Below are positions 7,965-52,599 of a stretch of DNA of 64,000 nt, in pieces; within the stretch, counting starts at the first letter, position 1, and the number at the start of each line of letters is the position of its first letter. The DNA is from Acanthaster planci (taxonomy: Eukaryota): positions 1,739,667 to 1,803,666 of the forward strand of contig NW_019091356.1 in the NCBI RefSeq assembly GCF_001949145.1. Reading direction: 5' to 3'. The notes under the pieces were generated by a model, which was not told the origin of the DNA, searched no databases, and saw only the letters and a program-made list of their open reading frames with translations. Made by a program: the position numbers and the translations under genes.

Positions 7965-8340
7965 CGACAAAACGTCTCAAGGGGGAAACTTCTTTGTGTG
8001 GCCCTTAAGCGACACTGGATTCTTGCCACTGAGGATCCTGTCCCTTTTTCTTTCCATCAGCCGGCGTTCATACCCATCGAGTGCCTGTCACTTTACTCGA
8101 CAGGCCATGCTTTTAGTTCTCTGAAGCAGAAGTGAATAGACCAAGGTGGGAGACTGTCGGTGCCGGCAAGGACGTTATTGGGACGCATCGTCAGCGGTGA
8201 TCGGTGTAGAGGTTACAGTGAAGCAGTCAAAACAATAAAATCGGAATCAGAATGAAATCGACTAAAATCGACCACTGATGTCCCAGAGCCGGTACCAAGA
8301 TGTACACTGAGATACACTGGTATGTCTGCAAGAAGGCACC
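7965..8340 (-). pseudogene. Possible very old relic of the Ig-receptor family
   Basis: Short colinear minus-strand matches: QCISVY (cf. HQCLSV, HVLSVY), TPITADDASQ* (cf. SPLMTSDKASQV) and PLRRFV (cf. PTLRRFV). Short and by eye only. Confidence 0.3.
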
Positions 8341-9920
8341 ATAGCCACGAGCACAGTGTGTCCCACAACCTTCACACCAGATCCTATACCAAACGGGATT
8401 CTTAAACTGGCAACAGAGCCAACCCCACCCAAAATACATGCCTGCGTTGACCCAAAATAAAGCTGAATTTTAAATGTATCCCAGAAACACCACGCAGGCT
8501 ACATTGATTGATACTTTCCTGTTTTGAAAAGAATTCATGCAGTCATTTTACCCCGCTTTCTTTATTGACGGGAGGGGAGCCCTTTGAATTTATTATTTCC
8601 CTTCAACTCATGACATAGGGCGCTGAATAGTCAGACTGATAGTTCTCGTGGGTCAGGACGTGTTCAAGTATGAATTACACTGGAACTTTTGTAAGTTCTA
8701 CTCCTTTCTGCTTTCAAAGATGCGTTCCCTAGCATTGTTCTAACACAGCTGATACTCACTGGATACGCCACTCACTACTCGGCCTGGCCAAGGTCACATT
8801 ATCCAAACATATTTATTATCACAAAATTCACTTCGAAATGTAGAAAATAAAGAAAGTATAGATGGTCAGCGCATTATCAAAGGAACTTATCCTCTGTGCA
8901 GACGGGCATAGAGTCATTGTGGACGCAAGCACAAGGGAAAAAACCAATAGATTTCTTGCTGGTTATATTGTAATTAATTTCTGTCTCTCCTGCTCGCAGT
9001 TTCCTGTATAAATACTACACGATGTCCGAAACACTGCTATGTAACACCGTTAAAAGCCCTCATCAAGCATTACTACCGTCTGTCAACATCTCATTAACAA
9101 GAGAATGAATGCACATTGAAAGACCAACAAGAGATGTGAACCCTTATGACCGTTTGCCCATCAGTCGATCATAATATTAACATAAGCTTTGACATCACCA
9201 TTCAAAGGCGTCAATACCACAGATGACAGTGCGTGTTTGCTTTTAATAAGAATTTTGCTTGAGATGTGCCAGTACGTCTAAGCGATTTTGATCCGCACTG
9301 TCGCCTCAGGAATGATCAAAATGTGAAGGATAAATGTTGAGAAAGCATAAACATATACAAGCATAAAGTGTAGCTGTAAATGACTTTTCTTAGACACATT
9401 TTTTGCAGCAACTTTACACATTGCTTCAATGTACAAAAATATCTGACATCCCAATTAAGTTAAATGCACTGAAAATTGCAGATTTTGTTTTTGCGTTGAA
9501 CCTACATGTAAAAGTTGGGGCTACTGCTATATTCGAACCAGCTTCAATAATTAATACAAAATACAGTTAAGATCCGGTCATTTATTTCATTCACAAAACA
9601 AGAACTTACTAAGGTCATCAAAGTTCAGAGGTTTGGGCAGGCCCACAGTGGTGGGGACAAACGGGGGAGTGTACTGTTCGTATTCTATGCTCATCTGTAC
9701 AAAATCCTTTGAAGAATGGGAAATGTCACCACGCACATTTTAATCTTGAAGAACGTCTGATTAGCTGAATCCATTTCTCCTAATTCTTATGGCGGTCGAC
9801 CGAGGCCAGACGTCGAACCAATGGGAAGAGAGTAAAAGGAGCAAAAACATATGCCGTTCGAGGTGAGTACACAAGGAAGACGTCTGAGGGCCAATGTTCC
9901 CAGTACTGAAGTAATCAGAT

Positions 9921-10685
9921 TTAATTAGATGTAATCTGTTTACCTAAGACAGAGAGTATCGGCATGTTATTCGGCAACGTGTACACATCATCTTCAACTT
10001 TGTACCGCAGCGGGCTGAGATCTAAGCTACAATCTTCGGCAAGTTCCCCAGAAGAGTTGGTGTGGCCAAATCCACCCTTCCTCGAGAGGGTGTACAGGTC
10101 TTCCCCGACTTGGTATCGCTCCAGATTTCCATCTCGACAAGCCCCAACACTCTGCCCGCCATGAGCGAGGTCTTCAGAAGCACACGGGTCATTGCCGAAC
10201 CTCCCTCCCTTGGGGACTGTGTACAGCTTGTCGCCGACCTCTATCCGTGTGAGCTTTTCATCCGGTCGCCCTCTTGTGTGCGGTCTTCCCTCGGGATCTC
10301 GAGGGGAGCACGCGGGGTGTCCACGAGTCTTACGCAGGTGTTTTTCATGCAGGGCATAAAGTACTCCATTGACACGCATGTGGGCGGGGCGCAAGCGATG
10401 TTGAGAAGCCGCCCCTCCCCTTTGCGACGTGCTCCTATTTCTGGGTTCGGCTGTTCGAGAACTGAGCATCTCAATAAATCTTGCTGGGAAAAAGGCAGAC
10501 GCTCGTGGAGTGGAGGCACTGCGTTTTCTGCGCAGGTAGCAGGCGATGCCAACGGTGATGACTACAAGGGACAGCAAACCAAAGAGACAGCCGATGGCCA
10601 CGCCCGCCTCTGAAGTCCCGCGCTCAACCGTAGTCGATGTTTGAATCGTGGTGGTTGAGAAGGATAAATTGGAAACATTCTGCAT
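9921..10685 (-). CDS. Single-pass membrane protein with a very short ectodomain and four cytoplasmic tyrosine modules (transmembrane-adaptor-like; tail homologous to the neighbouring Ig receptors), ~254 aa
   Basis: First ATG at 10685 (the ORF track starts at a GTG). ~27 aa S/T-rich N-terminus with NVS/NLS sequons, hydrophobic GVAIGCLFGLLSLVVITVGIACYL, basic RRKR, then VNGVLYAL, VGDKLYTVP, VGEDLYTLS and VEDDVYTLP. An upstream spliced exon cannot be excluded. Confidence 0.75.
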   Translation of the reverse strand: MQNVSNLSFSTTTIQTSTTVERGTSEAGVAIGCLFGLLSLVVITVGIACYLRRKRSASTPRASAFFPARFIEMLSSRTAEPRNRSTSQRGGAASQHRLRPAHMRVNGVLYALHEKHLRKTRGHPACSPRDPEGRPHTRGRPDEKLTRIEVGDKLYTVPKGGRFGNDPCASEDLAHGGQSVGACRDGNLERYQVGEDLYTLSRKGGFGHTNSSGELAEDCSLDLSPLRYKVEDDVYTLPNNMPILSVLGKQITSN

Positions 10686-13600
10686 GGCCCCAGTACGATT
10701 ACGCGGTACTGCATGCACTGCCGATTACCCGGTTTGGTACTAAAATATGAAAATCAACTTCGGTATTTAAGCAAAGCGCTGAGTACTAAGGTGATCGTCT
10801 GTTATGATGTAGACAGTGATATAGTCGGTCAACAATTTTTTTCCACAGAAAGTTCGATGCTACTATCAGTGGCGAAGCATATGCAAAGAATTTCAGAAAA
10901 ATCACGCCACAAATCAAGATACTAAATGTAGAACAATGAAGTTCAGGCGTATTGTATCAAATACATATACATATATATATATAATACAATACTTCCCGCT
11001 TCAATGTTAAACTAGTACTAAACCCAACACTTTTTATTGAAATACATGCTGCTATGTAAACAAAATATCATATTAGAATAATACATGTTGAACGCTGTGG
11101 CATTTCCTCGTATACGTTATGTAGATAAGGGAAGTTGGTAGTCAGAAAAACATATTTAGCACGCACTCGAAAGCAAAAGAAAAGAGTAATCAAAGCATAC
11201 TCTCTCAAACAATAACAAAGGCTCTAACTGACACCCGGGCTTGTTTCCTTTTGCTAAGCTCCGGAGGCCGGCGACGGATAGAAGAACATAAGAAAAACTG
11301 CCTCATGTGGTTATATTAATACAGATAAATGTCGAGATATGGTCGAACGGGGGATGCACAGGGACGAACCTGGCAATTAAAATAAATCGCGCTTGTTGAT
11401 GAATGACAAGGACACTTTCGCAGTAACTGCGTCAAGAACCACAAACGGACATGTTACATGTGCTAATACTTATTTCACGTGTTAAAAATGCTTCACAATT
11501 CATCACTGACACCCCAGTCATATACATGTATGTAACGCCGTTAGGGGCGCTGGTGTCCGATGTCATAAAGAAAACCAAAATAGTTTATGGGAAAACTCTC
11601 ACAAAATTTACATTGATAATAAGCATTCATAAACACACCTATAGGAGTCATTATAAAGAGAAATATACACAGATTTGCAAACCTGAACTTCAGTTTTTTT
11701 ATTCATATGACGACTGACTCCTCCATTACGGTTACCATGACAGTACATGTATATAGCTATATACATGTATATAGCTCTTTAAAAATGCCAGATACTGTAT
11801 TTTACACTGGTTGCTATGTCGCTCATAAACGGAGCTGTTTTATCCAGCGATTATCAAGTTTAATTGAGCACATTCGCAGAAAAAAACCATGAAGTACACG
11901 CTCTCCCTGCAGATGTCACAAAAATTATAGTTTACCATATGGTGTGTGGTGATCGGCTACGAATGTCCACTTTGGGTAATAATGATCATGATGACGTGTA
12001 CGGGATTAGTGTACATAATCGCTGAGTACATATACTGCAAACTGGCCCTGTGCTGTTTCGGAGCTTAAGAATGGGACTAAATCAGAACAGTCAACAGAGA
12101 GTTCAACTTCGACAGAATGTAAATACTTCAAAATTCTTGTTTGGCATGCTGATAAAACTATGATGTTAAAATTGCAAGGTGTGAAATAAACACTATTGTT
12201 ATGCATAGTTATGACTAACAAAGGACCGGGTGTTGTCTTGTCAGCTTAGCGTATCAAAGGTGTTTGATCCACACCACGGTTTTACAGAGCATGCTCATTA
12301 TGAAACAATATACTCTAAAGACATCAGTTTACCTCCAATACAAGATCATTAACAGTTACAGAGAAAGTACATGAAAGTTAATTCTTTTGTGTTAGGTTGG
12401 ACACATATCGTCTTCCGGTGTAACAGTCTCATCCATCGGCCAAGCTCAAATCTCGGAATCTTAGCCGAACGCTCCAAACTTGGCCCGAACGTAGACGCAG
12501 TAAATGCCCTATTTATGTTCTCTAAAGGGGCGTGCCAAAAAGTTTCGCATCATATCATGGACACGTCGCTATAGACGTCCCTGTGTGTGTACAGGTGGCT
12601 TTCGCGGAAATTTCGTTGGGAATGAAAGCGCGTGCTCCTCACTACGACAAATCTGTCGACGTCAAAGTAATTTGGCATTAATACATGTTAAGTGCATTCA
12701 CAGGAAATATGACAATACCCCCCCCCGTGCGTCACTGATGTGTAGAAAATCTGGATCAACCCTTCCCCGGTCTTCATGTCTCTTCAGTATTAATCCAAGC
12801 CTGATTTAGACTTTGGGGAAACAGCAGACCTGTCATAGGATCGCGAATGAGTCAGGAAGCCAACCCCTGACAGACCCTTAAAACAACCATAAACGTCAGC
12901 TGCTAACCAGCGCGCAGCGTACGTGCGTAAGATTGGACAGATCAACTAGCCGGCCGGGAAAATGAGCGCGTTGCGGCACCGTGTATACTGTCATCCGGTA
13001 CGTTCTTCCGGAGTTCCAAACACACCGGATGAGTGAGACTGTGATACCGAATATGCACGTATGGATGCCACGTTATCAATTGCACGAAATTCGGGGAAGC
13101 CAACATAGTAACGTATGTTTATGGTGCTCATTACCAAAGTGCGCGTAAGCAAATTTTGCACTTAACAGCACAACACCAGGATATGTCTGGTTTCGCGCGC
13201 TCTAGAAGAAGAAGACTGTCTTAATCGACATGCAGGCAAAATTGGAAATCCGCTGGATAAAGCATTTTGTAGAATAACTTTGACTTTTGAACAAATTGTT
13301 TGCGTCAAATCTTGTAAATCCAGACATTCTGTAATGGAAAAATCCGTCATATATCTAATTTAAATTATTTTATGTCCCAATAAAACTTAATTCTTAGAGT
13401 CAGGAGTTATCGCTTCGTCGTGCTTTTGACAAAAAAGAGGATACCCTCGTAGCATGCTCTTGTAACTTAAGGGCAGACTTTTGAGTAATTCTTGCAGCAG
13501 CGAATCACGGGTCAAATGCAGTCGTGTATGCGTGTTTATGTGTACGTGTACGTGTGACATGCACATGTACATGTTCATGCTCATGTACTGAGGCGGACGC

Positions 13601-14019
13601 CACGACTTTGACGTCAGGTTACCGCACTGGTCAGTGTCCAATAGGAAATGTCTCTAATCTAACGATTCTACCTTATGAAATGGTGTCCGTTACTGACGAA
13701 ATCGGAACAATCTAATAGAAAATCGTCATTCTACTCTTGAATATACCATTTTGGTAATAAAATGGACACAAAAAGGCTTGAACGATACGAATTTGGGGTG
13801 ATTGACCTAATTATTAAAAGTTTTATCTGGCGGATTCAAAATAAACGCGTGAAATCAATGCGTTAAAGGTGAATCTTTAATTTGATGCTAGATTTTATGA
13901 GAAATTAATTGATGAAGTTAGTGCAAACTTTGCAATTTCGATTTTTTTTTCGTTAGAAAAGGGTTTGTATTAAATCCACTTTTCATGCTGTTGAGATCTA
14001 CCGTTACTTAAAGATCTTA

Positions 14020-14760
14020 CGAAACTCATTATATGATAATGTCCCACTTCCTTTCAAGCTCTTTATGCATACTGATTTATTCTCTTAGTGCATTAAATCG
14101 CTGTCGGTATTATATGGGTCAGACTGAAACTAGAAATCGCTGGTAAACAGAGCAAGACGTCTTCCTAATTGGCTGAGCAATCGACTTCTGTTTCAGTCAT
14201 GTAAACCAAAAATCTTCATCTTAGGTCGACCACAAATCGTGCTCATGCACTATACTATTTCCCTTCATTAAATGAAGTATGTTCAGGATTACAATTTTGT
14301 TATACATCAATATTTATCGGGTAACATTAACGGTGCAATGTGCACAGCAAAGGGGCGCAGCTGAAAAATTTGCTTGACGAACTGTTTTACCATATTCAAT
14401 TAGGAAATTGGAAACACCATAAAAACTTTAAAAGTGCTTTAAAAGTTAACAACCAATGGAAAATTCTGTCAGATGCGTATTGCTCAAACATCTTTCTTGT
14501 TCTAAACGTCATATCCAAATACATTAATTACATTTTCTTACAACGGACACATCCTTCCGTACGAAAAGCAGGTGACAAGCTAACGTGACACTGATGGGCT
14601 ACATGAAAAAGTATCCCTCAAAGTGAACGAAAGGAAGGCTGGGCCGACCGTCGTGTTCCCATCTCCCTTATTATATTAAGAATTAAAATACCATGCACTG
14701 CTGAGATCAGGGAGCATTTACACTTTATACGTCCTATTGTACAGGAAAATCAAAATACCA
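14020..14760 (+). repeat. Non-coding segmental duplication, copy 1 (copy 2 at 22900-23630)
   Basis: Colinear matches: cgaaactcat.atatgataat..gtcccacttcc, catactgatttattctcttagtg, acgaaaagcaggtgacaag, gtatccctcaaagtga, ctattgtacaggaaaa.tcaaaat. Confidence 0.85.
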
Positions 14761-14934
14761 ATCTCAGAAAATTGTTTAGCGCCAAAAACTGGTTTCCTTA
14801 AAGCTAGCCCACACTGTTTGTGTGAATTTTACAGTCGGTTGGGTCAGTTGCAATTGCTGAATTGAAAGTGAAAAGATGTATCATTATCCCAGCTTATGTA
14901 GAAAGGAAATTTTTAAAAATGTAGCTTGTTTCGA

Positions 14935-15200
14935 AGTCAGTGCTTTTCAGATACACTACATATTTATCGACAACAGATGAATGGGAAAATTCAGTACTCA
15001 GTGAAAATTTCTCTACTCACTGCCGACAGTTACCTGCGTTGTCCTTCTGGGACAAACGTGGCAGTCCAACCTACTTCCACACTCTGGTTCTGTGGATTTC
15101 GACTGAGAGACACTGATGCAATTCCGATGGAGAGGAGGCTTCAGGCAACAAACAGCACAAAAAGGATGCCAAACATTCTAAAGCCATTGCCTCTGTAGGG
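14935..15200 (-). pseudogene. Decayed 5' fragment of an Ig receptor (signal peptide plus partial Ig1), copy 1
   Basis: ATG at 15187: MALECLASFLCCLLPEASSPSELHQCLSV, frameshift, NPQNQSVEVGWTATF, deletion, SSVVDKYVVYLKST (compare SPGVDKYLVYLNRT in the 17753 gene). Confidence 0.7.
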
Positions 15201-15641
15201 ATTACTTAGTACAGAATCACAAAAATGAAACCATTAAATAAAAGTTTTTAGTCATAGGCCTAGTTACTGTTTAGAATGCATCAAGTTGACACGCACAACA
15301 TTAATGACTCCGAAGTGAAGAACTTGCCTATGATCATGTTCGTAAAAACGGGCAATACTTATTGGACATTTCCAAATTAAAATATCCTGCATTAAAATAC
15401 ACACCTCTATCGTTACCACACAATGCCTTGTTTGTAAACTGAAGAAGCAATAGGATGCGCTTGGCCACTAAGGATGCAAGAAAGACGTAAAAACCGTTCC
15501 GATATAGGAACATCATCCAAAGAAAAAAAACGAAACGTTGACTGACATTGATATCATCCATTGAATGAAAATGATAAAAAAATTTATTCCTGCAAAAACA
15601 AAACACAGGTACCTTTCCCCAATGGGTCGGTATGAGTTCAT

Positions 15642-16455
15642 TTAACAGCACCGGTTCACTGATCCTGGTGCAATGGTGGCACTACAATCTGGTATCAGGT
15701 ACGGATTCCCTTCCACTCGTTGAGTGCTAAGTAGGGTCACATCCGGTCTGCCTCTTGGCACAACACTCGTTTCCCTGAAAGGCTTGTGTCGATTAGATCA
15801 CCCGATCCGAGTACCCACCACCACTTATATTAAGTGAGGCCCGTGCAGCAAAATATCCTGCAAGAACTGTGATGCTAGTATAATTTCATATGACGCAATA
15901 CAGTAGGCAAACTTGTAAGTGAGGCTAGTCAGCGTCACGAAAATTTGCAAGCAGAAGGCTTTAACAAGCCTCCCTTATAAGTTTGCCCAATGTTTTGCAC
16001 CATACGATAATATATTGGCATCAGAGTTAGAGCATGGCTCACTTATAAGCAGCGGTGGGTAGTTGGATCAGGTAATTAGATCTGTCACCTTAAGGTCCTC
16101 CTGCCTCAGTACCGGGGACACTCTCTGCACTACCATGTCATTCACGAAGATGAATCTCAGAGTAATGATGACCACCTTGATCTGTTCCTGCTCCCATGGT
16201 GCTGAAAAACTGGGGATAAAGTCTTCCGGGAGAAAAAGTGGACGATAAGGGGCGAAACGTGGGGAACCCTTCGGGTCTTCGCTGACCACGGACCTCAAGC
16301 TGCTGGGCCCTTACAGGATTTCTTATCTTGTGTCGGTAGACCAAGATGCTAAGAATGGTAGCTACAACGATGAACACTGCGAGTGAGCCACCGATAATTG
16401 CCCAATGTAGCGCATCCCTGACATGTGTGGGGCTCGGAGATGCAGAACTGGGAGG
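15642..16455 (-). pseudogene. 3' part (stalk, TM, class-B tail) of an Ig-receptor paralog; premature TGA at 16138 and MITE insertion; 5' part lost in the gap
   Basis: Reads PPSSASPSPTHVRDALHWAIIGGSLAVFIVVATILSILVYRHKIRNP...EGFPTFRP...HHYSEIHLRE*. Past the MITE it resumes SNRHKPFRETSVVPRGRPDVTLLSTQRVEGNPYLIPD, which aligns with the tail of 34738-36150 (RNRHESSKET...AESPYLIPN). Confidence 0.75.
15799..16074. mobile_element. 276-bp MITE with imperfect ~45-bp TIRs and a 7-bp target-site duplication ATTAGAT
   Basis: Left end cacccgatccgagtacccaccaccacttatattaagtgagg; right end reverse-complemented tacctgatccaactacccaccgctgcttataagtgagc. ATTAGAT at 15792-15798 and 16075-16081. A paralogous empty site lies at ~20502-20520. 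Confidence 0.85.
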
Positions 16456-16480
16456 NNNNNNNNNNNNNNNNNNNNNNNNN
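16456..16480. other. Assembly gap (25 N)
   Basis: N run that joins two different receptor paralogs. Confidence 1.
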
Positions 16481-17753
16481 CAACAACCCAGTTACTGCTA
16501 TCACCAGACGAGTCGTCATGAGTAAGCGTTCCTTCAAGTCCGTCCCTCCGCCCGTTACTCCCTCCTTTACCAGCAAGTTCTTGTAAAGACTCACGCCTTG
16601 TTACTGGTTCGTGAAGGCGTGTATCTGGCACTACTGCATATACCTCATCTAGCTGGACGTCGACGGGGTGCTGAACAGAAGAAAGAGGGATGCTCTGACC
16701 GATGCGAGGTGTATCTTCATTTCGTGTTGGAAATGTGCCATCGACGTATATGTGGGAATCCCTCATTGAGTTGGACACAAAGCGTCTCAGAGTGGGCGCA
16801 GCTTGGTCGACTTGGTAAGATCTGTTCCTGGGTTTCCGTTGGTAACGACGATGTAAGGCAACACAAAGGATCATGGTAGCAACAAGGATTATCACTGCAA
16901 GCAATGAAGCACCGATAATTGCCCAATGTAGCGCATCCCTGACATGTGTGGGGCTCGGAGATGCAGAACTGGGAGATTGAGTGGACAGTGGCGGGGCCGT
17001 ATCATTCAGTGTCTCTGTAGCCACTAGTACCTGATACCAAGGGCTCTGCTGTTCACAATCAGAGCTGTAAGCGACGGTACATCTGATCTGGCTTTTGTTG
17101 TCAGATGCTATGAGCGGAGAGATGACCAGTCGATTTGTGGAAATTTTGAATCTGTCCGCAGTGTTACTAACAGAAACGGCGTGGTTGTCTGCATCCCTCA
17201 TTTGCCATCTTATCATGGAAGAGACTGGATAACAATCGGAATCACAGAAAAACTCCCCTTTACCACCAACAACTAGTCCTTCATTTTGAGTTACTGTGGT
17301 AGAGATGTGTACGTGGCAGATGGTTTGATTAGTTACGATTAGAATTGCGGAACTAGAAGACTTGAAGGAATCTCCTCTTCCGGATACATCGCAGAGGTAC
17401 TTCCCAGAGTCAGCTGAAGTAGCGTTGTTGATTACCAGCGTGTAGATCGTTGCCTCTCCAGTGCGATTTAAGTACACCAAATACTTGTCGACACCAGGTG
17501 AAGGGAGGACATCAGAGCAGTGCGACAATTGTCTAAGGTCTGAGCTACCACTTAGCTGCATTTTCCACGAGATCCAGTGATCGGCGCAACCGATATGAAA
17601 GTCGACATTGCACGTGAATGTCGCACTCCCACTTTCAGTAACACACTGGTTCTCTGGAATCAGACTGGCATGGCCATACGCCGGTGCGGAGAAGGCACAC
17701 ACCAGAATGCAAAAGTACGAAAGACTATCTGAAGCCATGGGCTCCCTGATCAT
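16481..17753 (-). CDS. Intronless two-Ig-domain type I receptor, class-A tail; 3' end runs into the N gap
   Basis: Signal peptide (MASDSLSYFCILVCAFSAPAYG). V-like Ig with FTC...ISW...YTLVI...DSGKYLC. Second Ig with FFC...IRW...LVISPL...IRC. TM WAIIGASLLAVIILVATMILCVAL. Tail with SHIY and EVYAVV. The ORF-track residues beyond the gap are out of frame and belong to a different paralog. Confidence 0.88.
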
Positions 17754-24231: not shown

Positions 24232-25286
24232 TCAAAAAGGGTACACTTTATTGGGTAGGGTATACAGATCTTCCCCAACCTGAAATCTTACAGGAGCAAC
24301 AGACGATTTACTGCTGTTACCAGAAGAACTGTCAGAATATTCGGCGTTGTCAAGTTTCACTTTACTTGGCACAGTGTACAGATCTTCCCCAAACTGGACA
24401 CGAGTCGGGGTTCCTTCTGGTTGATCAATTCGCCCCTTATTCCCTCCGTTACCAGCGTGTTCTTGTGAAGACTCAGGCCTTGTTGCTGGCTCGCGCATGC
24501 GTGTATCAGACACCGCCGCGTATATGTCTCCTAGCTGGGGGTCAGCGGGATGCTGAGCAGAAGAAAGAGGGATGCTTCGACCGATGTCAGGTACATTTCC
24601 GGATCGTGTTGAAAATGAACCATCGCCGTATATGTGGGAATCCCTTCTTGAGTTGGGAATAAAGCGTCTCAGAGTAGGGGCGGCTTGGTCGACTTGGTGA
24701 GGTCTGTTCCTGGGTTTCCGGTGAGCGCAACGATAGAAGGTGACACTAAGGATGGTAGCTACGAGGATCAGCAAAGCAAGGATACCACCAATAACCAACC
24801 ACAATATCATAGGCGGACCCGTATCTGCATCGGTGATGCTCTGTGTTGGGCCTGGAGATATAGCATTAAGAGGTTGCGTTGGCAACTGCGTGAGAAACTT
24901 CAAGCCGGAATCATCCCGCGTCTGTGCAACCACTAACATCTGATACCATGCACTAAATTCTTCACAATCGGTGGTGTACACGATACTGAACTTGGCTTGG
25001 CATTGTATTTGGCTTCCGTTGTCTGAGACCAAGACTGGAGATAAGGTCAGTCGATTTGCAGAGGTTGCAAACCTGTCGTCGTTGTTAAGGAAAATTGCCT
25101 GGTTGGCTTCTTTCTTCATGAGCCACCTAACCGTAGAAGAGTTCTGGAGAGGATCAATGTCACAGCGAAAAGTCCCTTCACTACCTACAGTCAGTTCTTC
25201 CATTTGAGTGACTCTAATAGATAGGTTTTGATTATTTTGGCAGATGCTTTGATTGGTCACTGTTAGAAATGCAGGCTTTGAAGTGT
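24232..25286 (-). CDS. Intronless Ig receptor, class-A tail; second Ig, stalk, TM and tail visible; signal peptide and first Ig presumably inside the 536-N gap
   Basis: Open frame from the gap edge to TGA at 24232. D2 and stalk are very similar to 30428-31870. TM ILWLVIGGILALLILVATILSVTFY. Tail motifs SHIY, DIYAAV, EDLYTVP and EDLYTLP. The missing ~380 nt would fit inside the gap. Confidence 0.85.
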
Positions 25287-25822
25287 NNNNNNNNNNNNNN
25301 NNNNNNNNNNNNNNNNNNNNNNNNNNNNNNNNNNNNNNNNNNNNNNNNNNNNNNNNNNNNNNNNNNNNNNNNNNNNNNNNNNNNNNNNNNNNNNNNNNNN
25401 NNNNNNNNNNNNNNNNNNNNNNNNNNNNNNNNNNNNNNNNNNNNNNNNNNNNNNNNNNNNNNNNNNNNNNNNNNNNNNNNNNNNNNNNNNNNNNNNNNNN
25501 NNNNNNNNNNNNNNNNNNNNNNNNNNNNNNNNNNNNNNNNNNNNNNNNNNNNNNNNNNNNNNNNNNNNNNNNNNNNNNNNNNNNNNNNNNNNNNNNNNNN
25601 NNNNNNNNNNNNNNNNNNNNNNNNNNNNNNNNNNNNNNNNNNNNNNNNNNNNNNNNNNNNNNNNNNNNNNNNNNNNNNNNNNNNNNNNNNNNNNNNNNNN
25701 NNNNNNNNNNNNNNNNNNNNNNNNNNNNNNNNNNNNNNNNNNNNNNNNNNNNNNNNNNNNNNNNNNNNNNNNNNNNNNNNNNNNNNNNNNNNNNNNNNNN
25801 NNNNNNNNNNNNNNNNNNNNNN
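25287..25822. other. Assembly gap (536 N)
   Basis: N run covering the 5' part of the 24232 receptor. Confidence 1.
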
Positions 25823-27459
25823 GACCATGAAAGGACGTAGACAGTCGTCAATACTGACGTCCAAACTCACGACTCGGACCAAGTCGCGAATAGTGGCGCC
25901 AATATTCAAGTCCAAAATTCACACCCGCTCTCTGGATCGCGTATATTGTCACGAGCTTTTGTTCGGCAGGCGAGGTAGACCATGCCCGGGTTTTTGATGC
26001 CACGTGATTACAAGAATCGGAATATGGGTCATACCCTGGACTTGCAACACACAGTGTGTGTACGGGCTGCCGAAATAAATGGCCATGTTCTGCAGAATTC
26101 ACATGAAGTGCTAAGTTGCGTGTTGACGTCACTAATTGCTAAGTATAGCGTTGTGATTACCAAGCCGAATATCAAACCTACAAGGTGTAGATCACTGACA
26201 CTGCGCGGGGTCGACTTGACCTCACACTTAGCTTCTGTGGGAAAATGCGACAATATTCACTAGAAAAGGTGGTTTTGAGCGATTATTTTTTACTTCCTGT
26301 TTAATTTCCAAAAGGTTTCAAAGCAATCATTTCCCCAAAACCAAAGCACAATCAATATACAGGTCAGTACGTGTTACATGGCTTTTAAAAGCAGTTCGGT
26401 TGGTCAAGATGAAGGCAAACTACTCTGTTTACTTTGATTTCAACCCCAGCGTTGGTATCAATAACTTCAAATTAAAAGAAGCCACTCCCCTGAATGTGGA
26501 CCGATCTCAACAAGAAATGGCCTACTCCATTCCTGGCGAATCAACCACAAATTTCCTCTTAATTGTTCACTTGTCAAAACAAAGTTACCACTGAATCAGT
26601 TCATGGAATATGCAAATATGGATGAAAATGAAACGAAAATAGGAACAGTTACACAATTCTGTGAATTTCCACAAATCAACAACACTCAGAACAATCCGTC
26701 AAACCGCCATTTTACTAGTCTTGCTTTTTCCTAAGAACGACATAATCTGTTGTTTTTCTTAAAGAAACAAAAGGAAATGTGTTTTCATAACCGTGGATTA
26801 GAACTATAAAGTCACATTTAATGTTCTTTCCTCAGCAGTTTTTTATGGATCCCACCTAAAAAATTCAAAATGGTTTATTTCATATTTCCAAATATATGCA
26901 TAATTAACCGAAAAAGTCAAAATCGGGATTCAGTATTTAAGAGACGATATCAAAGTCTTGAGTCGAATTCTACTACAAAAATACTATTAATGTTTCGTTA
27001 CGTCTTGAAATTCATTTCTGATTAAGAGTACTGATTTACTTTTCCAACAATGTACAAATCTTGTCAACAGATGGCGCACGTACTTTATAGCGATCAAGCT
27101 TTGCACAACACATCGACTATCCTTGTAACTTATACACAGGCAAGTTGCCGTCAAAATGTTTCATTTCATTCCGTAATAGTCCTGGTATCCTACACACGCA
27201 TGGAACAAAACACAGATAGTGCATTCGATTAGTATAGCAGCTTCCATTTGGCTTTGGAACGTAAAGATTTTGCTCACCGTTCCAACAAAAATCCTCCGGG
27301 ACCATTCACACAATAAATTAAGTCAAGAATAAGCGAACAAGCCCCCTCGTCAGAACGTCAAAAACAGATGTAGACGAAATTTCTCATGCTGATACATAAA
27401 GGTTGCCCGCGATAACATCCCTTTCATTATGGTTTCATTACAATGCATGATTATAATAA

Positions 27460-30427: not shown

Positions 30428-31870
30428 TTACACCGAATCTTCAACACTGTGGACATCTGAATGCGGCATTGTGTACAGATCCTTCCCGACCGTAAATCTC
30501 ACAGAACCAACACCCGATTTACTGCTGTCTTCAGACAAATCGTCAGAAGATTCAGTGTTGTCAAGTTTCCCTTCACTTGGCAAAGTGTACAGATCTTCTC
30601 CAACATGGACACGCGTCAGCGTCCCGTCCGGGCCAATTCGTTTTATGCGATTGCTTCCATTACCAGCGCGCTCTGTAGATGGGGGCCCGGACGAGGCAGA
30701 CAACTCATCCTGGCGTGTGTCAAGCACAGCATAAACGTCTCCCTGCTGTGGGTGGGCGGGGCGCTGAATAGAAGAAAGAAGGGTGCTTGGGCCGATATTA
30801 GGTGCATCTACGGGTCGTGCTGGAAAGACGCCACCGCTGTATATGTGGGAATCCCTTACTGGGTTGGGGACAAAGCGTCGTAAAGTGGGGGCGGCTTGGT
30901 CGACTTGAGATCTGTTTGGGGGTTTCCGATGCTTGCGACGGTAGAAAACGACAATGAGGATGATAGCTACGAGAACCATAAAAGCAAGGATACCACCAAT
31001 AACCAACCACAATACCATAAACGAACCCGTATCTGCATCGATGATGATCTGTGTTGGACTTGGGAATATTGCATTAAGAGGTTGCGTTGGCAACTGTGTG
31101 GGAAAATTCAAGCCGGCATCATTCCACGTTTGTGCAACCACTAACATTTGATACCATGGACTAATTTTTTCACAATCCGTGGTGTACATGATACTGAACT
31201 TGGCTTGGCATTGTATTTGGCTTCCGTTGTCTGAGGCCAAGACTGGAGATATGGTCAGTCGATTTGCTGAGATTGCAAACCTGTCGTCGCTGTTAAGGAA
31301 AATGGTCTGGTTGTCTGCTTTCTTCACGAGCCATCTAAACGTAGAAGAGTCCTGGTGAGGATGAATGTCACAGCGAAAAGTCCCTTCACTACCTACAGTC
31401 AGTTCTTCCTTTTGAGTGACTCTGGTTGATAGGTTGTGATGAGTTTGACAAACGCTTTGACCAGTCACGGTTAGAAATGCAAGACTTGAAGTGTCAATAC
31501 CTTCTCTCCCCGATATAGCGCAAGAGTATTTTCCAGAGTCAGCTGAAGTAACATTGTTAATTGCCAAGGTGCAGACCGTCGTATGGCCAGAGCTATTTAG
31601 ATGCACTGAATATCTCTCATCAACATAGGAATCATTCACACAACCACACCGCGACACTTTTTGGGATTCACTCTGGCTAATTACTTGTCTTGACCAGGAG
31701 ATTATGTTAGTTTCACAATCAACATGAAAGTCGGCATGACAGGTGAATGTCGAAGTCCCATCCTCAGCCACACTCTGGTTTTGTGGATATACACTAAGGA
31801 CATGGTGCGATTCTGATGCGGATGAGACATGCAGCCAAATGCAAACGAGTGCAAGAATAGCTGTAGCCAT
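30428..31870 (-). CDS. Complete intronless two-Ig-domain type I receptor, class-A tail (~480 aa)
   Basis: ATG at 31870 opens a signal peptide MATAILALVCIWLHVSSA (alternative in-frame ATG at 31921). Ig1 FTC..IISW..CTLAI..DSGKYSC; Ig2 FRC..FRW..LTISPV..IQC; TM VLWLVIGGILAFMVLVAIILIVVFY plus RRKHRK; tail SHIY, DVYAVL, EDLYTLP, KDLYTMP; TAA at 30428. Confidence 0.92.
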   Translation of the reverse strand: MATAILALVCIWLHVSSASESHHVLSVYPQNQSVAEDGTSTFTCHADFHVDCETNIISWSRQVISQSESQKVSRCGCVNDSYVDERYSVHLNSSGHTTVCTLAINNVTSADSGKYSCAISGREGIDTSSLAFLTVTGQSVCQTHHNLSTRVTQKEELTVGSEGTFRCDIHPHQDSSTFRWLVKKADNQTIFLNSDDRFAISANRLTISPVLASDNGSQIQCQAKFSIMYTTDCEKISPWYQMLVVAQTWNDAGLNFPTQLPTQPLNAIFPSPTQIIIDADTGSFMVLWLVIGGILAFMVLVAIILIVVFYRRKHRKPPNRSQVDQAAPTLRRFVPNPVRDSHIYSGGVFPARPVDAPNIGPSTLLSSIQRPAHPQQGDVYAVLDTRQDELSASSGPPSTERAGNGSNRIKRIGPDGTLTRVHVGEDLYTLPSEGKLDNTESSDDLSEDSSKSGVGSVRFTVGKDLYTMPHSDVHSVEDSV

Positions 31871-32199
31871 CGTCCCTGTGACAAAAAAACCGCTTGGAGA
31901 GCCATATAACCTAACACCCATCTCCAATGCTGAGGTATGTTCTGAAGCTGGATTTCTCACGCCTCAGCTATTTATTGTATGAATATTTCCATGCAGGTGC
32001 ATTGCTTACGTTCCCTTCACTTTCGTTCTCTGTCCACACCGAAAAGGTAATCAGGAAGCGCACTGTATGCCAGGCTTTCGGATATTAACTACATCACGCA
32101 CTAAGCCTTCAGAACCAAATGTGTATACACTAATATCTACACGTATAAACTACTGTTACATGTACACGAAACCACAGACTTTGCTCATCGGTTTTGGTA

Positions 32200-34737: not shown

Positions 34738-36150
34738 TCAATGAGGCGAGTAAGCAGTTACCATGATCTGTTTGTTCTGGTTCAATGCTCCTCGAGTAAA
34801 TGCGACATTACTCTTATTTGGTATCAGGTACGGACTCTCTGCCCCCTCCTGGATGTTGTGCAGGGTTAAATTCGGTTTGTCTCTTGACCAAATGATTGTT
34901 TCCTTCGAAGACTCATGTCGGTTTCTATCACTCTGATGTTCTCCTAGTTCTACCGGCGATGCTCCGTGCACCTGTGTGCGCACATCATCGAGACGAACTT
35001 CGGAGTAGAGGTGACTTTCTGGTTCCGTTCCACCGCTTTCTGGTTTGATGGTGTGGAAATACACCGGATTTCCTCTTGTAGTTGTCGGTATGGAAGATGA
35101 GGGGCGAAGCGTTGGGAATCCTTCGGATCTTTTCTTGGAACAGGCCTTGGGCTGACGCACCACGGGATGCTTCCTAATCTTAAGTAAGTAGACCGCAGTG
35201 CCAACGATGATAGCTCCAAGGATTACCAAGGCGAGGATGCTGCCGATTACTGGCCACACCCCGGACTGATAGGCATCGGTAGCGACAACGATCTGCGTTG
35301 TTCTCGTCACTGTATGCCGTGGTGGATCACGTGAAGTTTGTGTCGGCTTCAGCGTGTTCCTTGACAAATTCCCACTGGAAATGGAAAAATTCAAGGAGAA
35401 CTCACTCAATGTCTGCAGAACCAATATCTGGTGCCACGAACTTCGGCCCTCACAGCCTGTGGCGTATACAACCTCACATCGCACTTGACTTGCCTTGTCT
35501 GAGGTCATGAGGGGCGAGATAATCAGTCGATTAGCTGAAGTCGCGAATCTTCCATTAGTGTAAATGGGAACAGTCTCGCCAGCTGCTCCCTTCACGAACC
35601 ATCTAAACGTGGGAGCTGTTGGGTGGGCGTCAATGCCACAGTGAAACTCCCCTTTACTGCGTACTGCTAGGTCTCTTCTTTGAGTGACCACGACGGATAG
35701 GTTCAGGGGTGTTTCGCACAAAGTTTCATTGGCCACGGTGAGCACTGCGTGACCAGAAGTGGTAACGGCGGTTTGCGTTAATGCAACGCAGTAGTACTCT
35801 TCACTGTCAGCCGAAGTTACATCGACAATTTCCAGCGTGTAGATTGTTAAGTTTTCGATGCTGTTCAGAGAGGGTAAATACTTCTCGGCATTTGCTTGAT
35901 CGTTGACTGTTTCGCAGGTTGTAATTTCTACAGGTGCGTTGCGGTCACCATCAATGGGCTGTCTCGTCCAATAGATTATTTCACCTGCCGTGCAATTGAC
36001 CCGAAAGTTGGCGTGGCAAGTAAAGGCCGCAGTCCCACCCTCGACCACACTCTGGTTGTGCGGATTCAGGATGAAATATCGATCATAATTCGATGTGAAT
36101 GAGACTTGCAGGAAAATGCATAAAAAGAAACTTAGAGCCGCACCGGCCAT
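34738..36150 (-). CDS. Complete intronless two-Ig-domain type I receptor, class-B tail (470 aa)
   Basis: Signal peptide MAGAALSFFLCIFLQVSFT; Ig1 FTC..IIYW..YTLEI..DSEEYYC; Ig2 FHC..FRW..LIISPL..VRC; T-rich stalk; TM VWPVIGSILALVILGAIIVGTAVYLL; tail with NPVY, HLYSEV and SPYLIP. Confidence 0.92.
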   Translation of the reverse strand: MAGAALSFFLCIFLQVSFTSNYDRYFILNPHNQSVVEGGTAAFTCHANFRVNCTAGEIIYWTRQPIDGDRNAPVEITTCETVNDQANAEKYLPSLNSIENLTIYTLEIVDVTSADSEEYYCVALTQTAVTTSGHAVLTVANETLCETPLNLSVVVTQRRDLAVRSKGEFHCGIDAHPTAPTFRWFVKGAAGETVPIYTNGRFATSANRLIISPLMTSDKASQVRCEVVYATGCEGRSSWHQILVLQTLSEFSLNFSISSGNLSRNTLKPTQTSRDPPRHTVTRTTQIVVATDAYQSGVWPVIGSILALVILGAIIVGTAVYLLKIRKHPVVRQPKACSKKRSEGFPTLRPSSSIPTTTRGNPVYFHTIKPESGGTEPESHLYSEVRLDDVRTQVHGASPVELGEHQSDRNRHESSKETIIWSRDKPNLTLHNIQEGAESPYLIPNKSNVAFTRGALNQNKQIMVTAYSPH

Positions 36151-37675
36151 TCTGTTCTCCGATCACCTGACGGTGCTGAATGTGGGAGTCTTCTCAACAG
36201 GAAAAAAGTGATTCGATGTTAAATTACTTTACATATGGGCATAACATATGAGTCACCAAGTTGTTCCTTCTTTCGAAAGTCATGCCAGCCTGGGCATGGC
36301 AGCTCAGGAAAGAGAAAACAAAAGTTTCAGTCCATTGTGAAAACATGGATTCGCGTGTGAAATAATCCCACAAGCAATTCATTAACTACTCCAGGGAAGA
36401 AAAGATACGCGATGCATGAATTCCAAGGCATAACCACACTCGTGAGGTAATGCCGTCACAGATGCACTGATGTACAGGCATGCATGGGCAGCAAAAGAAA
36501 CATCAAATGTCAGAAACTGTTTTAAATCTACTGACCACCATTAAGAAAAATACTCAAAGACGGTGTGGAAAACCAAGAGATCTCAAACGGTTGATATACT
36601 GCAGAAGCTGCGCGATTAACAGTTTCCTCTACCTGATACAACCTCAATGCACTTTCTGGCCACGAGTCTTCTTTTTTCAGTTTGGTTTGGTTGCTTAATG
36701 CTATTATTGTTTTGTACTGTGTTTGGTTTAAGTTTTCCCATGTTTTAAATTACATGTATTTAATTGGCACTAATTTTTGAACTGTTACACATCCAGTCAA
36801 TGCTTCAAACTCCCTGAGGTTGGATAGGCCTATATGGTGATAGACAAGCAAACTGAAACTACTTGTGCATGGATACTGAGACCAATCCTCTAAGCCCCGC
36901 CCATGTTCTTCTGTGAATGTTTATAAATACTACTTGTGGAAAGGACGAAGGCAGGCAATATTTTTTGACAGTGATTTTTTCTTTAATCCAATCCAGAGAG
37001 GGGTGGTGGTGCTGTTTGGAACATGTTCGTTTTTTAACAATTCTTTAACAAAAATGCCCCTGGACTCAGCATGGAATTTGGAACACATTCAAATATCATT
37101 GGTCAACATGTCCAAATCCCATTTCACTCCATTAAGGCCTGTCACGCCAGTGACCTTGCAAATCCTGCTAACATTGGGACTCATAGGGACAAACTGCGGG
37201 TCCATGGTGATTCTGCAGATGTATTCATAATTTCCGAGAGGAAGGAACTTTAATTGATAACTTGTTACCTCACCTGTCAGGTAGCACCGTCTGTGGGACT
37301 CTTACTCTGTAGTCGGGCAATGGCCATTCTATCCCTTGTGGCAGGTACATGTTAACTGTATTTCAATGTCTGGCATTGTAGATAATGGTCCATCTTTGTA
37401 AACCTGCCTTTCCCTTGAGGTTTTGAATTAGAGGTCCTAGTAGAGCTGTTTTACAGCACGCTCAGAAACTACCTGTACATGATGATGACCATAACAGATA
37501 TATACAATATCATTACAATTCTTTGCTAAATAATGTTTCTCTAGATTATTATTAATCTATGCCTATCCAACATTGTAGTTGGTACTATATTGCACGGAAT
37601 ATTAAAAAAGTGAAATGTAATTACTCTATTTGGCATTTACATCCCTCCGAAAACACAAATGTTTAATTCGGGCGA

Positions 37676-37832
37676 TTCACAATTAGTGCGCCTCCAAGAG
37701 TTTGCAGCGCATTGGCCAATCACAACACACAAAATCTGTCCACTCTCCAAACACCAGATTAATGGCCGACAGATTTTGTGCACTGTGATTGGCCAATGCA
37801 TTGCAAACTCTTGGAGGTGCACTATTGTGAAA
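37676..37832. mobile_element. Palindromic (foldback/MITE-like) element, ~65-bp arms
   Basis: ttcacaattagtgcgcctccaagagtttgcagcgcattggccaatcacaacacacaaaatctgtc pairs with gacagattttgtgcactgtgattggccaatgcattgcaaactcttggaggtgcactattgtgaa. Confidence 0.8.
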
Positions 37833-39804
37833 TGCTCGTATTTATGTAGGGCCTACTCAAGCAATCCCTCCTCCAACTCGCAGATATTGAGCACCGCCCA
37901 TCGGTGGTGTTTCAATAATCTTAATTTAAATAAGCCACGGCAATAGTCACATATGTGCCCAGTCAACGCCATAACTAAAAACAAAATTTGCGATTTGCCC
38001 AGGGACCGAACAATACTGAACGCAAGAGTTACAATGATAGCCGCTTCTGGCTTTTTGGGATTATTTATCATGTTTATGCATGGAGAAATAAAACACAGTG
38101 GTTTATGTTTTGAATTCCGTGCTGGTAGGCCTACTAGTAGGGTTTAAATTTTGTGCGTGTCGAAACAAAGCATAGCCATTTCTGTGTTTCTTTATGTCGT
38201 GTGTAAATGCATTATCGGGCAACGATGCGTCCTTCTAATGGAAACATGCGAGCATGCTAAGGTTCCTCCATGTTTCATGCAATCTGCCTTCCATTCACAA
38301 AGACAACAATGGTATGGCTGGTGGCGACATCTTCAAAGTTCGAGAAAAAGTAAACGCTGACTCACCTTTTTTTAGCCAACAAAATTTTCCAACAGTTTCC
38401 ATAAAGTGAAGCTGACGTCCTGTGTATCTCTTTGTCCAAGTTTAAGGAGCAAAACAACCGTTCATATAATTATTTGTCAATCTTTTTCATCGGAAAGCGA
38501 ATCCACGTGATTCGCATTTCTGGCACATTTTGGACTGCCGCCGGCAGACGGATAGCGCAAAGCGCATGTCCAGGGTAGTGAAGAAATAGTCGGATGGCGT
38601 GCCCTTGCAAATTCTATCAAAACGAGACTTGGTACCAGATACTAGATGCGCAAAAGGTACGCTGTGGAACCGGCTACGTTTGTCAGTGGAAGAAGAAAAA
38701 ATTCCATGTTTCTTCTAAACATGATGATGTAAGCCAGGACTCATTGTGGTAATATGATCTTGTCTCTTGGTCAGACTAATCTAGAATGGATGCAAATTGT
38801 TATTTTAACGTCTGATTTGATTCACCCCGCGCCGCATGCACAGCAAAGGCCCACAGTCAAAGTAAGCCTAGGCCATGTGTCTGTGTCTGTCTGACGTCTG
38901 GGCTGCATGTAAGTGCCAAGTCAAACGTCGTATCATAAACGTAGCGCACTTCTACGTTTCCCTTGATTTTTCCCGTGCAGTGTTGCCAAACCTCTTTGTT
39001 GAAATATTGTAAAATCATTCACTAATATATACTGGAACTGATGCCATCTATAATACATGGTGCTGAACCTCTGTGAACATTTCAATGTCATGAAATGAAT
39101 CTGAAATACATAAAGTGGTGGCGTCCGAAAATTGGGCACGTTCAGCTGAGTGTTCCTGACTGACTTGCTGTTTATTGTGAGTGTTCCTTATGCGGTGCAC
39201 AGGACGTGCACTTGAACAAATTTCAGAGAACATTTATTGGTAAATGATTTATTTCATTATTAGGCTACCTCCACTCACATACCCAATCAGAACTTTCTAA
39301 GAAAATTATTTTAAAAAAGTGTGGGTTGATTTCTTATTTTTTATTCAAATTTTCAATGTGGATATGGGGGAAATCAGTGGTTCCGCATGCTGGTTCACTC
39401 GGTTCATTAGGCAGGTTGTGGCGTTAGTGAACCAAGGAGGTATTACCATCTGATCAGTGTGAAACAAGCAGGTCTAAGATTCCAAAGATTCCTTGATGTA
39501 CAGAATCAAGAAGAGACTGAGTGGTTGCATTCAGTCACATCTATTCTTCACTAACATCACGCCTGGTTTAATGTCAGAAAGAATGGTATCAATTGTCATT
39601 TGTACTTTGTATTCGCGATGCTTTGAAACACTAAAGAAGGCTTCTTCAGTTGTTACAGAGTTCATATATGTGATCGTGCGAACCAAGCTGACGTGCACAA
39701 AATTGACAGCTTTTTTTTCCCTCTCAGGTACAGTGCATGTGTGATGGATTGAAGATGGTATAGTTTGGAATACTTCAAAGTTCCGAGATTGAAAGCAATT
39801 TGTG

Positions 39805-40540
39805 ATGGTGCGACAACATCAGTTCTGCTTTGACACAGTGTCCAACTCACCCATGCACCAGGCAGCCTTCAATGGTGACCTGAAGTCCCTCCATGAGCTC
39901 CTTCGTACCCCTGACAACCACAAGATTATCAACCTCAAGAACCACCTGGGTTGCACCCCGCTGCGACTAGCGGCGACAACGGGCAGCCGGCCCTGCGTGG
40001 AGCTGCTTGTGGCCCATGGCGCTGACGTCAACCTGACAGACATCAAAGGCCAGACACCGCTGTTCGTTGCTGTCAAGAACAACCACCCCAGTTGCGTGCA
40101 GGCGCTGGTGTCTTATGGCGCCAACCCGAATGGCAGTCCCAACTGTCTAAGCAGTCCTCTGTTCATTGCAGCGATGCAGGGTCTCCACGAGTGCCTGCAG
40201 GTGCTCGTGCAAGCCGGGGCGGACGTCAACTGCTCCTTATTAGCGGGGCCATACATCCCGGCGACAAACACCCCCTTACACATCAGCTTCACCTACAGGC
40301 ACCGGCAATGCTTCCGAGCTCTGCTCGTCGCTGGCGCCGATCCCGATTGCGGACTGACGAGGAAGCACTTGGAAGGCAGGCCCTCCCTGCTGGATGCGGC
40401 CATCCAGTGGGGCGACATTTACTTCATCAAGCTTCTGGTTGAGTTTGGCGGCACGAGGACAAAGAACAACAGACAATTGAACAGGAAGATTGGTGGGGAG
40501 TCGGCGACCGAAAAGGAACTAGAGGTTCAGGCTTATTTAA
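39805..40540 (+). CDS. Ankyrin repeat and SOCS box (ASB-family) protein, coding exon 1 (ankyrin repeats)
   Basis: ATG at 39805 after an in-frame TGA at 39790; acceptor ttttttccctctcag at 39727. Ankyrin repeats SPMHQAA, GCTPLRLAA, GQTPLFVAV, SSPLFIAA, NTPLHIS and PSLLDAA. Donor A|GTGAGT at 40540/40541, phase 1. Confidence 0.9.
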
Positions 40541-41307
40541 GTGAGTTTGAATCTCACACTAACAATCTTCCACTGCACATGTATCATGTTGTCTTCAGCT
40601 TTTTTGTCACCAACCATATGCAGCTAAATCCCAGAGGCAAAAAAGTGCAAGAAAATCCCTAAAAAAATTCATTCAACATGCTTAGAAAATATTCATACAA
40701 CAGAATTAAGTCCTTTAATGCCACAGTGCCAAGTGTGAAGGGGAAGCATTGGTGACTTTTAAAGGGGAAAATCAAAGAAATTAGGTCAGGCAATCAGAGA
40801 CAGTGTGTAGAACGAATTTCATATATCATCAATATTAGTGGAATGACTTTTATTTGTTATTGAAGGGGTCCCACGCAAGCCCTTTCTTGAAAAAAAAAAA
40901 CAGTTTTGATGCAGCATGTTTGGGGTCGTCATGTAGTTCTCCATGGGCACACACTGCATAGGCACCCGAGTTGTGCATTTTGGAAAAATTACTGAAAAGA
41001 TTCCCATAAAGCGTGTGTCATTTTGAGAAACTGACACTCCATGCACCCCACGCTTTTTGTGAGTAAACAGTGTATTCGCATTATACAGGGTGCCCTTCCC
41101 AAAAGAAAAACCTAGTAGTAATGGTGAGATATATTTCTGCCAGTGTGACAACCTACTTTACAATGGTCTTTGTGTCCCTTTCCTCACCACAGTCTTGTGT
41201 TCCGCCCCTTTCTCCCTTTTCTGTTTGTATTGCACATTGGCTTCTGGTATCAGTAGACATGTTTTTTCATTTCACTGAAGTGTTGGTATTAATTTTGCAT
41301 CTGATAG

Positions 41308-44961: not shown

Positions 44962-45210
44962 CAGAAGCCAATTTCATAGAGCTGCTTAATTAAGCACAAA
45001 ATTTGCCTAAGCAGGAAAAAAATTTTGCTTAATAAACAAAGGTTACCATCTCAAACTGTATTTGTCATGCTAACCAAAACACGGCAAAGTATGACCCCAA
45101 AACAATAAACATCACATTGAGTTTTGGCTGGTTACCTGATTTATCCAGTAAGATTTTTTCGCGCTTAAAGCATATTTTGTGCTTAAGCAGCTCTATGAAA
45201 TTGGCCCCTG
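44962..45210. mobile_element. MITE with long imperfect TIRs
   Basis: gccaatttcatagagctgcttaa...gcacaaaat at left; attttgtgcttaagcagctctatgaaattggc at right. Confidence 0.8.
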
Positions 45211-52497: not shown

Positions 52498-52599
52498 TTC
52501 GGTGTGCTTCTTGTACTGCTTGTTGCACAGCTCACAATAGTAACTGGCTTTCATCTCCGACAAAGCGTCATCCTTAGCTTTCTCCTTTTCTGCGTTCTC
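52456..52599 (-). CDS. GPATCH8: GPATCH8-like exon (C2H2 zinc finger)
   Basis: cag|ENAEKEKAKDDALSEMKASYYCELCNKQYKKHTEYENHINSYDHHHKQ|gtaggg; 144 nt, phase 0 to 0. Confidence 0.93.

Follow-up and report, generated by a model that had tools for sequence, protein, structure and literature searches.

Known Transmembrane Adaptors and YxxP Scaffolds

The vertebrate lymphocyte adaptors known as TRAPs (LAT, NTAL, PAG/Cbp, LIME, LAX, GAPT, SIT, and TRIM) are characterized, in a published description, by a short ectodomain of a “few amino acids,” a single transmembrane (TM) segment, and a long tail with multiple tyrosines (PMC4861716). In LAT, two juxtamembrane cysteines, C26 and C29, are documented in two sources (PMC4861716, PMC10079008). 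YxxP is the consensus for the CRK/CRKL SH2 domains, is of pre-metazoan age, and is repeated in certain choanoflagellate membrane proteins (PMC5043372), and the YxxP tails of the membrane scaffolds DCBLD1/2 are phosphorylated by Fyn and Abl (PMC6029619). No evident ancestor of the vertebrate TRAPs is named in the literature searched. LAT, NTAL, LAX, and GAPT have Grb2-binding tyrosine motifs, for which the consensus is YxN. The ITAM adaptors DAP12, FcR-gamma, and CD3-zeta combine a small ectodomain with a Cys residue in the outer part of the TM segment, an acidic TM residue, and an ITAM.

The gene described here, g10, lies on the minus strand (9921..10685) of a 64,000-nucleotide window, the whole stretch of Acanthaster planci DNA that was analyzed. 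It is a single-exon open reading frame (ORF) of 254 amino acids with a 27-residue N-terminus, one TM segment, and a tail of ~200 residues. Like the TRAPs, it has a short ectodomain, a single TM segment, a multi-tyrosine tail, and no catalytic domain (none was found with Pfam). However, its glycosylatable ectodomain of 27 residues exceeds the few residues typical of TRAPs, its tyrosine sites are of the YxxP rather than the Grb2-type YxN kind, it has C49 alone where the palmitoylated TRAPs of the LAT type have two cysteines, and it is an invertebrate gene visibly derived from a neighboring receptor. The likeness to LAT, PAG, LIME, SIT, and TRIM proposed in an earlier note holds for the topology and fails for the motifs (YxN, ITIM, ITAM, and CxC/CxxC are all absent) and for homology, with no Pfam match above the cutoff, none among 382 scored candidates, and none among 12 profile matches. 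The best score in an Atlas search with g10 was 0.89, and the LIME1 cluster scored 0.86; both are leads only.

Repeated cytoplasmic YxxP sites are common to g10, DCBLD1/2, the p130Cas-type scaffolds, and the choanoflagellate YxxP membrane proteins, to which it shows no demonstrated homology; g10 lacks the CUB/LCCL/discoidin ectodomain and the SH3/FAT domains, and has just two strict YxxP sites, each within a longer R-x-x-V-G-x-x-x-Y-T module. With DAP12, FcR-gamma, and CD3-zeta it shares the small ectodomain and the outer TM Cys (C33), but it has neither an acidic TM residue nor an ITAM, and the TM segments of the neighboring receptors have no basic residue. The two-Ig receptors encoded in the same window (g17, g24, and g30) and their database relatives (P0001, P0034, P0038, and P0045) are homologous to g10 in stalk, TM segment, and tail, with 30 to 33% identity over the TM segment and tail; unlike them, g10 has neither a signal peptide nor Ig domains, carries a duplicated module A, and is missing the SHIY site. 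The g10 gene is a real ectodomain-less derivative of a receptor, with a putative function only.

The Cluster of Two-Ig Receptors

The minus strand of the window between ~9.9 and 36.2 kb carries a tandem cluster of intronless receptor genes, g17, g24, g30, and g35, whose coding sequences each consist of a single exon encoding a signal peptide, two Ig domains, a stalk, a TM segment, and a tail. The g30 gene (30428..31921) is intact and has a class A tail with modules A and B. A class A tail is also found in g24 (24232..25866), in which the first Ig domain is hidden by a run of Ns (25287-25822). The tail of g17 (16362..17753) has no module A and enters another N run (16456-16480), and g35 (34738..36150) is intact and has a differing class B tail with no module. 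PDB matches for g30 are to generic Ig domains only. Eight broken partial copies are scattered through the cluster (at ~14.8-15.2, 15.6-16.5, 18.0-18.3, 19.6-19.8, 20.5-21.8, 21.9-22.7, 27.5-28.4, and 32.1-32.9 kb). The cluster (14775-36162, minus strand) is subject to birth-and-death evolution, and its tails fall into two classes according to whether they have the YxxP module (A) or not (B).

The Ig relic nearest upstream of g10 (14775..15195, minus strand) consists of a broken signal peptide and part of the first Ig domain; it is frameshifted and 82% identical to the relics at 19.6 and 21.3-21.8 kb. It was considered as the lost ectodomain of g10 and is probably not, as its 82% twin at 21.3-21.8 kb precedes a class B tail. 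The g17 gene meets the 25-N gap at 16456-16480 (within 16138-16491), beyond which its stalk is repeated at 90% identity, fused to a broken class B tail. The repeated stalk at 16138-16491 could be a chimeric duplicate or an assembly join.

Topology of the g10 Protein

The start codon of g10 has the context GCCATG. No N-terminal signal peptide was found, and Pfam returned no Ig match, the best hit being TM_ErbB1 with an E value of 0.021, below the cutoff. The absence of a signal peptide and Ig domain claimed in the earlier note is thus confirmed by Pfam and ORF inspection, as are the glycosylatable N-terminus of ~27 residues and the single TM segment that it described. Of the 27 residues of the stalk-derived N-terminus (10605..10685), 12 are Ser/Thr, and N3 and N6 lie in sequons. 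This N-terminus is predicted to lie outside, given the positive-inside bias of the basic residues flanking the TM segment (5 K/R versus 1). The only hydrophobic segment, residues 28 to 51 (10533..10604), has a Kyte-Doolittle (KD) peak of 2.63, a GxxxGxxxG pattern, two cysteines (C33 and C49), and no charged residue, and ends in C49-Y-L-RRKR. AlphaFold, run with 4 sequences (mean pLDDT, 47), predicts a helix at residues 26 to 57 with pLDDT of >90 over residues 31 to 50, and beta-hairpins on all three modules of the tail with pLDDT of ~44 to 55, too weak for use. C49 is the single juxtamembrane Cys of g10, which contains no CxC or CxxC motif; a Cys at the end of the TM segment is also found in g17, g24, P0034, and P0038.

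The likely 3′ untranslated region (9553..9920) is outlined by the contigs X1 (9671-9991) and X17 (9553-9740) and by reads of run X12. An AATAAA signal at 9581-9586, inside which X17 has an extra base, agrees with the end of coverage near 9550; contigs as such cannot show transcript ends. An out-of-frame upstream ATG in a weak context opens a 50-codon frame (10714-10562, minus strand) that overlaps the g10 start and could dampen g10 translation.

Tyrosine Modules of the Tail

The g10 tail is homologous to those of g30 and g24 (tblastn E value of 6e-10), with local alignment scores (z of 17 and 14, respectively) that were reached by none of 1,000 shuffles, and does not match the g35 tail beyond chance (z of 1.5). 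Module scoring and local alignment place three modules in it, A1 (10212..10253; Y155, YTVP), A2 (10083..10124; Y198, YTLS), an internal duplicate of A1 that has lost the Pro at +3, and B (9972..10013; Y235, YTLP). Among the 2,081 tyrosines in six-frame translations of the window, Y155, Y198, and Y235 rank 5 to 7, with scores of 30 to 37 (the next is 12), directly behind the four receptor modules from which the scoring was built. Y110 (10350..10391) ranks 39th of the 2,081 and is not a module copy; it is homologous to the RPAH..GD(V/I)YA site of the receptors and lacks their hydrophobic residue at +3. Where the earlier note had counted four tyrosine modules against two, the arrangement is A-A-B in g10 and A-B in the receptors, i.e., three modules versus two, with four main tyrosine sites in each; the first tyrosine site of the receptors (SHIY) is missing from g10.

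The R, G/V, Y, and T residues of the module are invariant in all seven aligned sequences, including those of the ENA proteins. YxxP is retained in two of the three g10 modules (Y155 and Y235), and the tail contains no YxN, YxxM, ITAM, or ITIM. Each module tyrosine of g10 is preceded by acidic and aliphatic residues, as preferred by Src and Abl. The D-x-Y-T at Y198 and Y235 partly matches the Cbl TKB ligand motif, (D/N)xpY(S/T)xxP (PMC2943896), whereas Pro stands at +3 in the module and at +4 in that motif. Simple YxxP binding does not explain the invariant R(-8), V(-5), and G(-4), which suggest a more specific binding mode. A reading of the module as the PP1-binding RVxF motif was rejected, that motif being found in one g24 module only.

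Origin of g10 and the Breakpoint

The DNA of g10 aligns to g30 from 10722 on, that is, from within the 5′ untranslated region (nhmmer E value of 2e-16). In the 39 nucleotides 5′ of the ATG, the best ungapped in-frame match starts three codons past the W of W-Y-Q, the end of the second Ig domain of the receptors; in this W+3 register 20 of 39 positions match g30 (best of 1,452 offsets) and 19 of 39 match g24 (best of 1,011), g17 places it in the top 5, and g35 gives no signal. A stop-Y-Q is found in register at 10742, and further upstream the identity drops to 20 to 27%. In-frame stops upstream of the g10 ATG are located at 10742-10740 and 10727-10725. DNA tests of the stalk and 5′ homology were significant (z of 2.1 to 3.5); at the protein level, neither the N-terminus against the receptor stalks (z of <0.4) nor the juxtamembrane tail (z of 0.6 to 1.1) reached significance. 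Because homology starts at this point and in the register of the Ig2 end, g10 is shown, as judged from the alignments, to be a class A two-Ig receptor truncated at the Ig2/stalk border, and the derivation from a receptor paralog put forward in the earlier note gains a mapped breakpoint. The relic upstream of the ATG (10686..10742, minus strand), which comprises the end of Ig domain 2 and the start of the stalk and is crossed by unclipped RNA reads, is still ~50% identical to the receptors, a hint that the loss of the ectodomain is not ancient.

Relatives in Sequence Databases

A collection of 15 billion proteins contains no exact match to g10, g30, or g35. Among 7,989 candidates scored, a search with g30 returned one relative, P0001 (45% identity), and a search with g10, limited to candidates of 139 to 445 residues, confirmed none of 382. 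In 1.84 billion proteins, a length-free profile search found 12 matches, none of them a g10 orthologue; sea-star proteins of the family are few in the collections. A metagenome scan confirmed none of 267 pattern matches, the alignments being too divergent for the method. Class A tails with modules A-B are found in P0034 and P0035/P0045, which come from short ENA contigs and hence are known without their N-termini, whereas P0038 and P0001 carry Ig-type ectodomain sequence. The ENA record P0040 (115 residues) consists of two B-type modules with acidic spacers and no TM segment and may point to use of the module outside the receptor family. The remaining profile matches appear to be of a generic kind, to TM segments or repeats. 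The tails of the relatives are 46 to 52% identical to those of g24 and g30, compared to the 30 to 33% between g10 and any of them, which marks g10 as an old or fast-evolving lineage. The literature listings and opening lines of abstracts that were searched contain no description of the cluster or of an echinoderm TRAP.

Transcription and Constraint

A DNA contig from another individual (X5) covers positions 8340-12839 in one gapless piece and shows 13 differences, which rules out an assembly error as the source of the g10 structure. The single difference within the g10 coding sequence, at 10089, is synonymous (P of 0.32, not significant). RNA read pairs on 9540-10889 number 0, 1, 1, 2, and 3 in the runs X6, X9, X10, X11, and X12, respectively, with 18 to 20% of each run read. 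These seven pairs over five runs and two contigs (X1 and X17, at the 3′ end) correspond to ~0.2 FPKM, similar to the receptor g17; sparse as it is, the RNA on g10 is colinear with the genome. No depth was seen in X11 or X12 over 10890-11939. The first mate maps to the plus strand in all seven pairs; strand is not taken as proof because X9 shows six and six pairs on a receptor-like stretch and the flanking islands have both orientations. These islands, at ~11980-12390 and 8790-9260 in unique DNA on either side of g10, collect RNA reads in both orientations, several of them clipped, and may represent exons of a non-coding transcript that is not annotated.

In all four comparisons of module regions, including g10 A1 against A2, pN (0.33 to 0.46) is lower than the saturated pS (0.70 to 0.76), the regions having been picked by protein alignment. 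In terms of sequence comparison, the lineage has therefore long been constrained, though the signal may predate the truncation altogether and cannot date the loss. The g10 frame is intact over 254 codons, while all eight other partial copies are broken; upstream of the ATG, the last 19 codons hold stops and a 3-codon insertion, but the 254 that follow it hold none. In simulations, a neutral frame of this kind survived in 2 to 26% of cases at 0.05 substitutions per site and in 0.15 to 9% at 0.1, with or without indels, and in <1% beyond 0.1 substitutions per site with indels. Given such survival at low divergence, the ectodomain may have been lost recently.

Possible Role and Alternative Explanations

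The main reading, to which we assign a probability of about 45%, is that g10 serves as a ligand-independent YxxP docking scaffold in the receptors’ own pathway, as an amplifier or a competitor. Translation would start at the stalk Met, the TM segment would insert with the N-terminus outside and both sequons, N3 and N6, glycosylated, Src/Abl-type kinases would phosphorylate the D/K-L-Y-T-x-P tyrosines, and Crk-type SH2 adaptors would dock on the phosphotyrosines. By doing so, g10 could supply extra docking sites (amplifier) or draw partners off the receptors (sink); with no means of sensing ligand, and with the same sites already present in the receptors, it fits these roles better than that of a relay for tail-less receptors. 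The scaffold reading draws on the breakpoint and its register, the intact frame with stops only before the ATG, the lower pN than pS, the invariance of the module, the synonymous-only difference in the coding sequence, RNA at a g17-like level, and the YxxP literature. Against it stand the lack of an orthologue and of protein evidence, constraint that is possibly older than the truncation, a relic that is still ~50% identical, neutral survival of 2 to 26%, the P of 0.32, the ~0.2 FPKM, the absence of the +3 Pro from A2, and the unexplained R(-8), V(-5), and G(-4).

The earlier note had pointed to 10700-10720 as the place where an Ig exon might be spliced in. Candidate acceptors have their first exon base at 10739 (strong) and at 10717 and 10708 (weak phase 1 CAGs). 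For g10 being the last exon of a longer gene whose upstream signal-peptide/Ig exon joins 10717 or 10708, it can be said that both CAGs are in phase 1 at an Ig-domain boundary, that the 13 codons upstream of the ATG contain no stop and keep the register of the Ig2 end, that an expressed island with clipped reads is found at ~11980-12390, and that a rare joint would be invisible in these runs, in which listing requires three reads; no splice joint was listed on g10, where this threshold is hardly reachable at such depth. However, the pyrimidine tracts of the two CAGs are weak (5 and 6 of 14), and an exon beginning at the strong acceptor, 10739, would run into an in-frame stop. Of the 8 reads placed from X11, the four on g10 cover 598 of 600 bases, so they are unclipped, and 128 of these bases fall past 10739; bin arithmetic on X11 indicates that all three acceptors are crossed unspliced, each by one or more reads and by one or more fragments, with none clipped there. 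With only one or two fragments, possibly of pre-mRNA, this evidence for an unspliced g10 is moderate. A profile of the family ectodomain found nothing significant in 10740-14775, no intact Ig or signal exon is present within 10740-16140, and the paralogs are intronless in their coding sequences and have no consensus donor after Ig2. No Ig exon joins g10 in the few RNA reads available, and a spliced upstream ectodomain is very unlikely.

If the ORF is complete, g10 might still be a transcribed, non-functional young remnant of a working three-module receptor whose ectodomain was removed by a recent deletion and which has not yet acquired a stop, a possibility to be taken seriously, if short of an even chance. 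It would then be a further outcome of birth and death in the cluster. The cluster holds eight other dead partial copies, the relic upstream of the ATG can still be aligned, transcription at ~0.2 FPKM could be weakly kept or gained, no orthologue was found, and the selection signal can be older than the loss. Yet stops and the 3-codon insertion occur before the ATG and not after it (suggestive, as the junction letters may be foreign), the ATG has a good context with two sequons directly after it, and neutral survival beyond 0.1 substitutions per site with indels is <1%. Alternatively, g10 would be a dedicated, palmitoylated, LAT/PAG-like relay that associates with the neighboring Ig receptors, carries their signal, and is required by them. 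Its topology fits the TRAP description (PMC4861716), Cys49 lies at the end of a TM segment with GxxxGxxxG, and g10 is linked to the receptors and has an additional module. Tandem duplication, however, accounts for the linkage, g10 has no YxN, ITAM, ITIM, or two-Cys motif, and g24 and g30 already hold modules A and B, and the TM segments of g10, g24, and g30 are all uncharged. An obligate relay of the LAT or DAP12 kind is therefore improbable, and the view of the neighbors as being in need of an adaptor does not fit receptors that carry the same modules on uncharged TM segments.

Returning to the docking scaffold, the complete evolutionary account, in which an Ig receptor shed its ectodomain, took a stalk Met as its start, carries an extra module, and is selected as a ligand-free hub, so that a transmembrane adaptor is caught arising, is tentative and on balance unlikely. 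If true, it would provide an independently evolved invertebrate counterpart of the vertebrate lymphocyte adaptors, with the breakpoint readable in the 5′ untranslated region, within an unannotated receptor family bearing an undescribed R-x-x-V-G-x-x-x-Y-T-x-P docking module. Such a case, its parent gene adjacent and its breakpoint mapped, would open the passage from receptor to adaptor to testing. Should g10 be a remnant, the value shifts away from it to the family of receptors and their conserved tyrosine module. The analysis also brings to light a group of intronless two-Ig receptor genes with fast turnover in a starfish that is an important predator of corals.

Other Features of the Window

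Palindromic or inverted-repeat elements at 15791-16077, 37665-37842, and 44967-45205 are likely MITEs; the first is inserted in a broken class B tail and attracts many repeat reads. The first coding exon of an ASB1-like ankyrin gene (39793-40662, plus strand), 100% identical to an Acanthaster planci RefSeq protein, provides a synteny anchor for the receptor cluster. On the minus strand, 45815-50956 and 52025-52716 belong to a gene that resembles GPATCH8; it has one exon of 1,713 codons and no Pfam match, and the end of its zinc-finger-like exon is tandemly repeated at 52025-52492.
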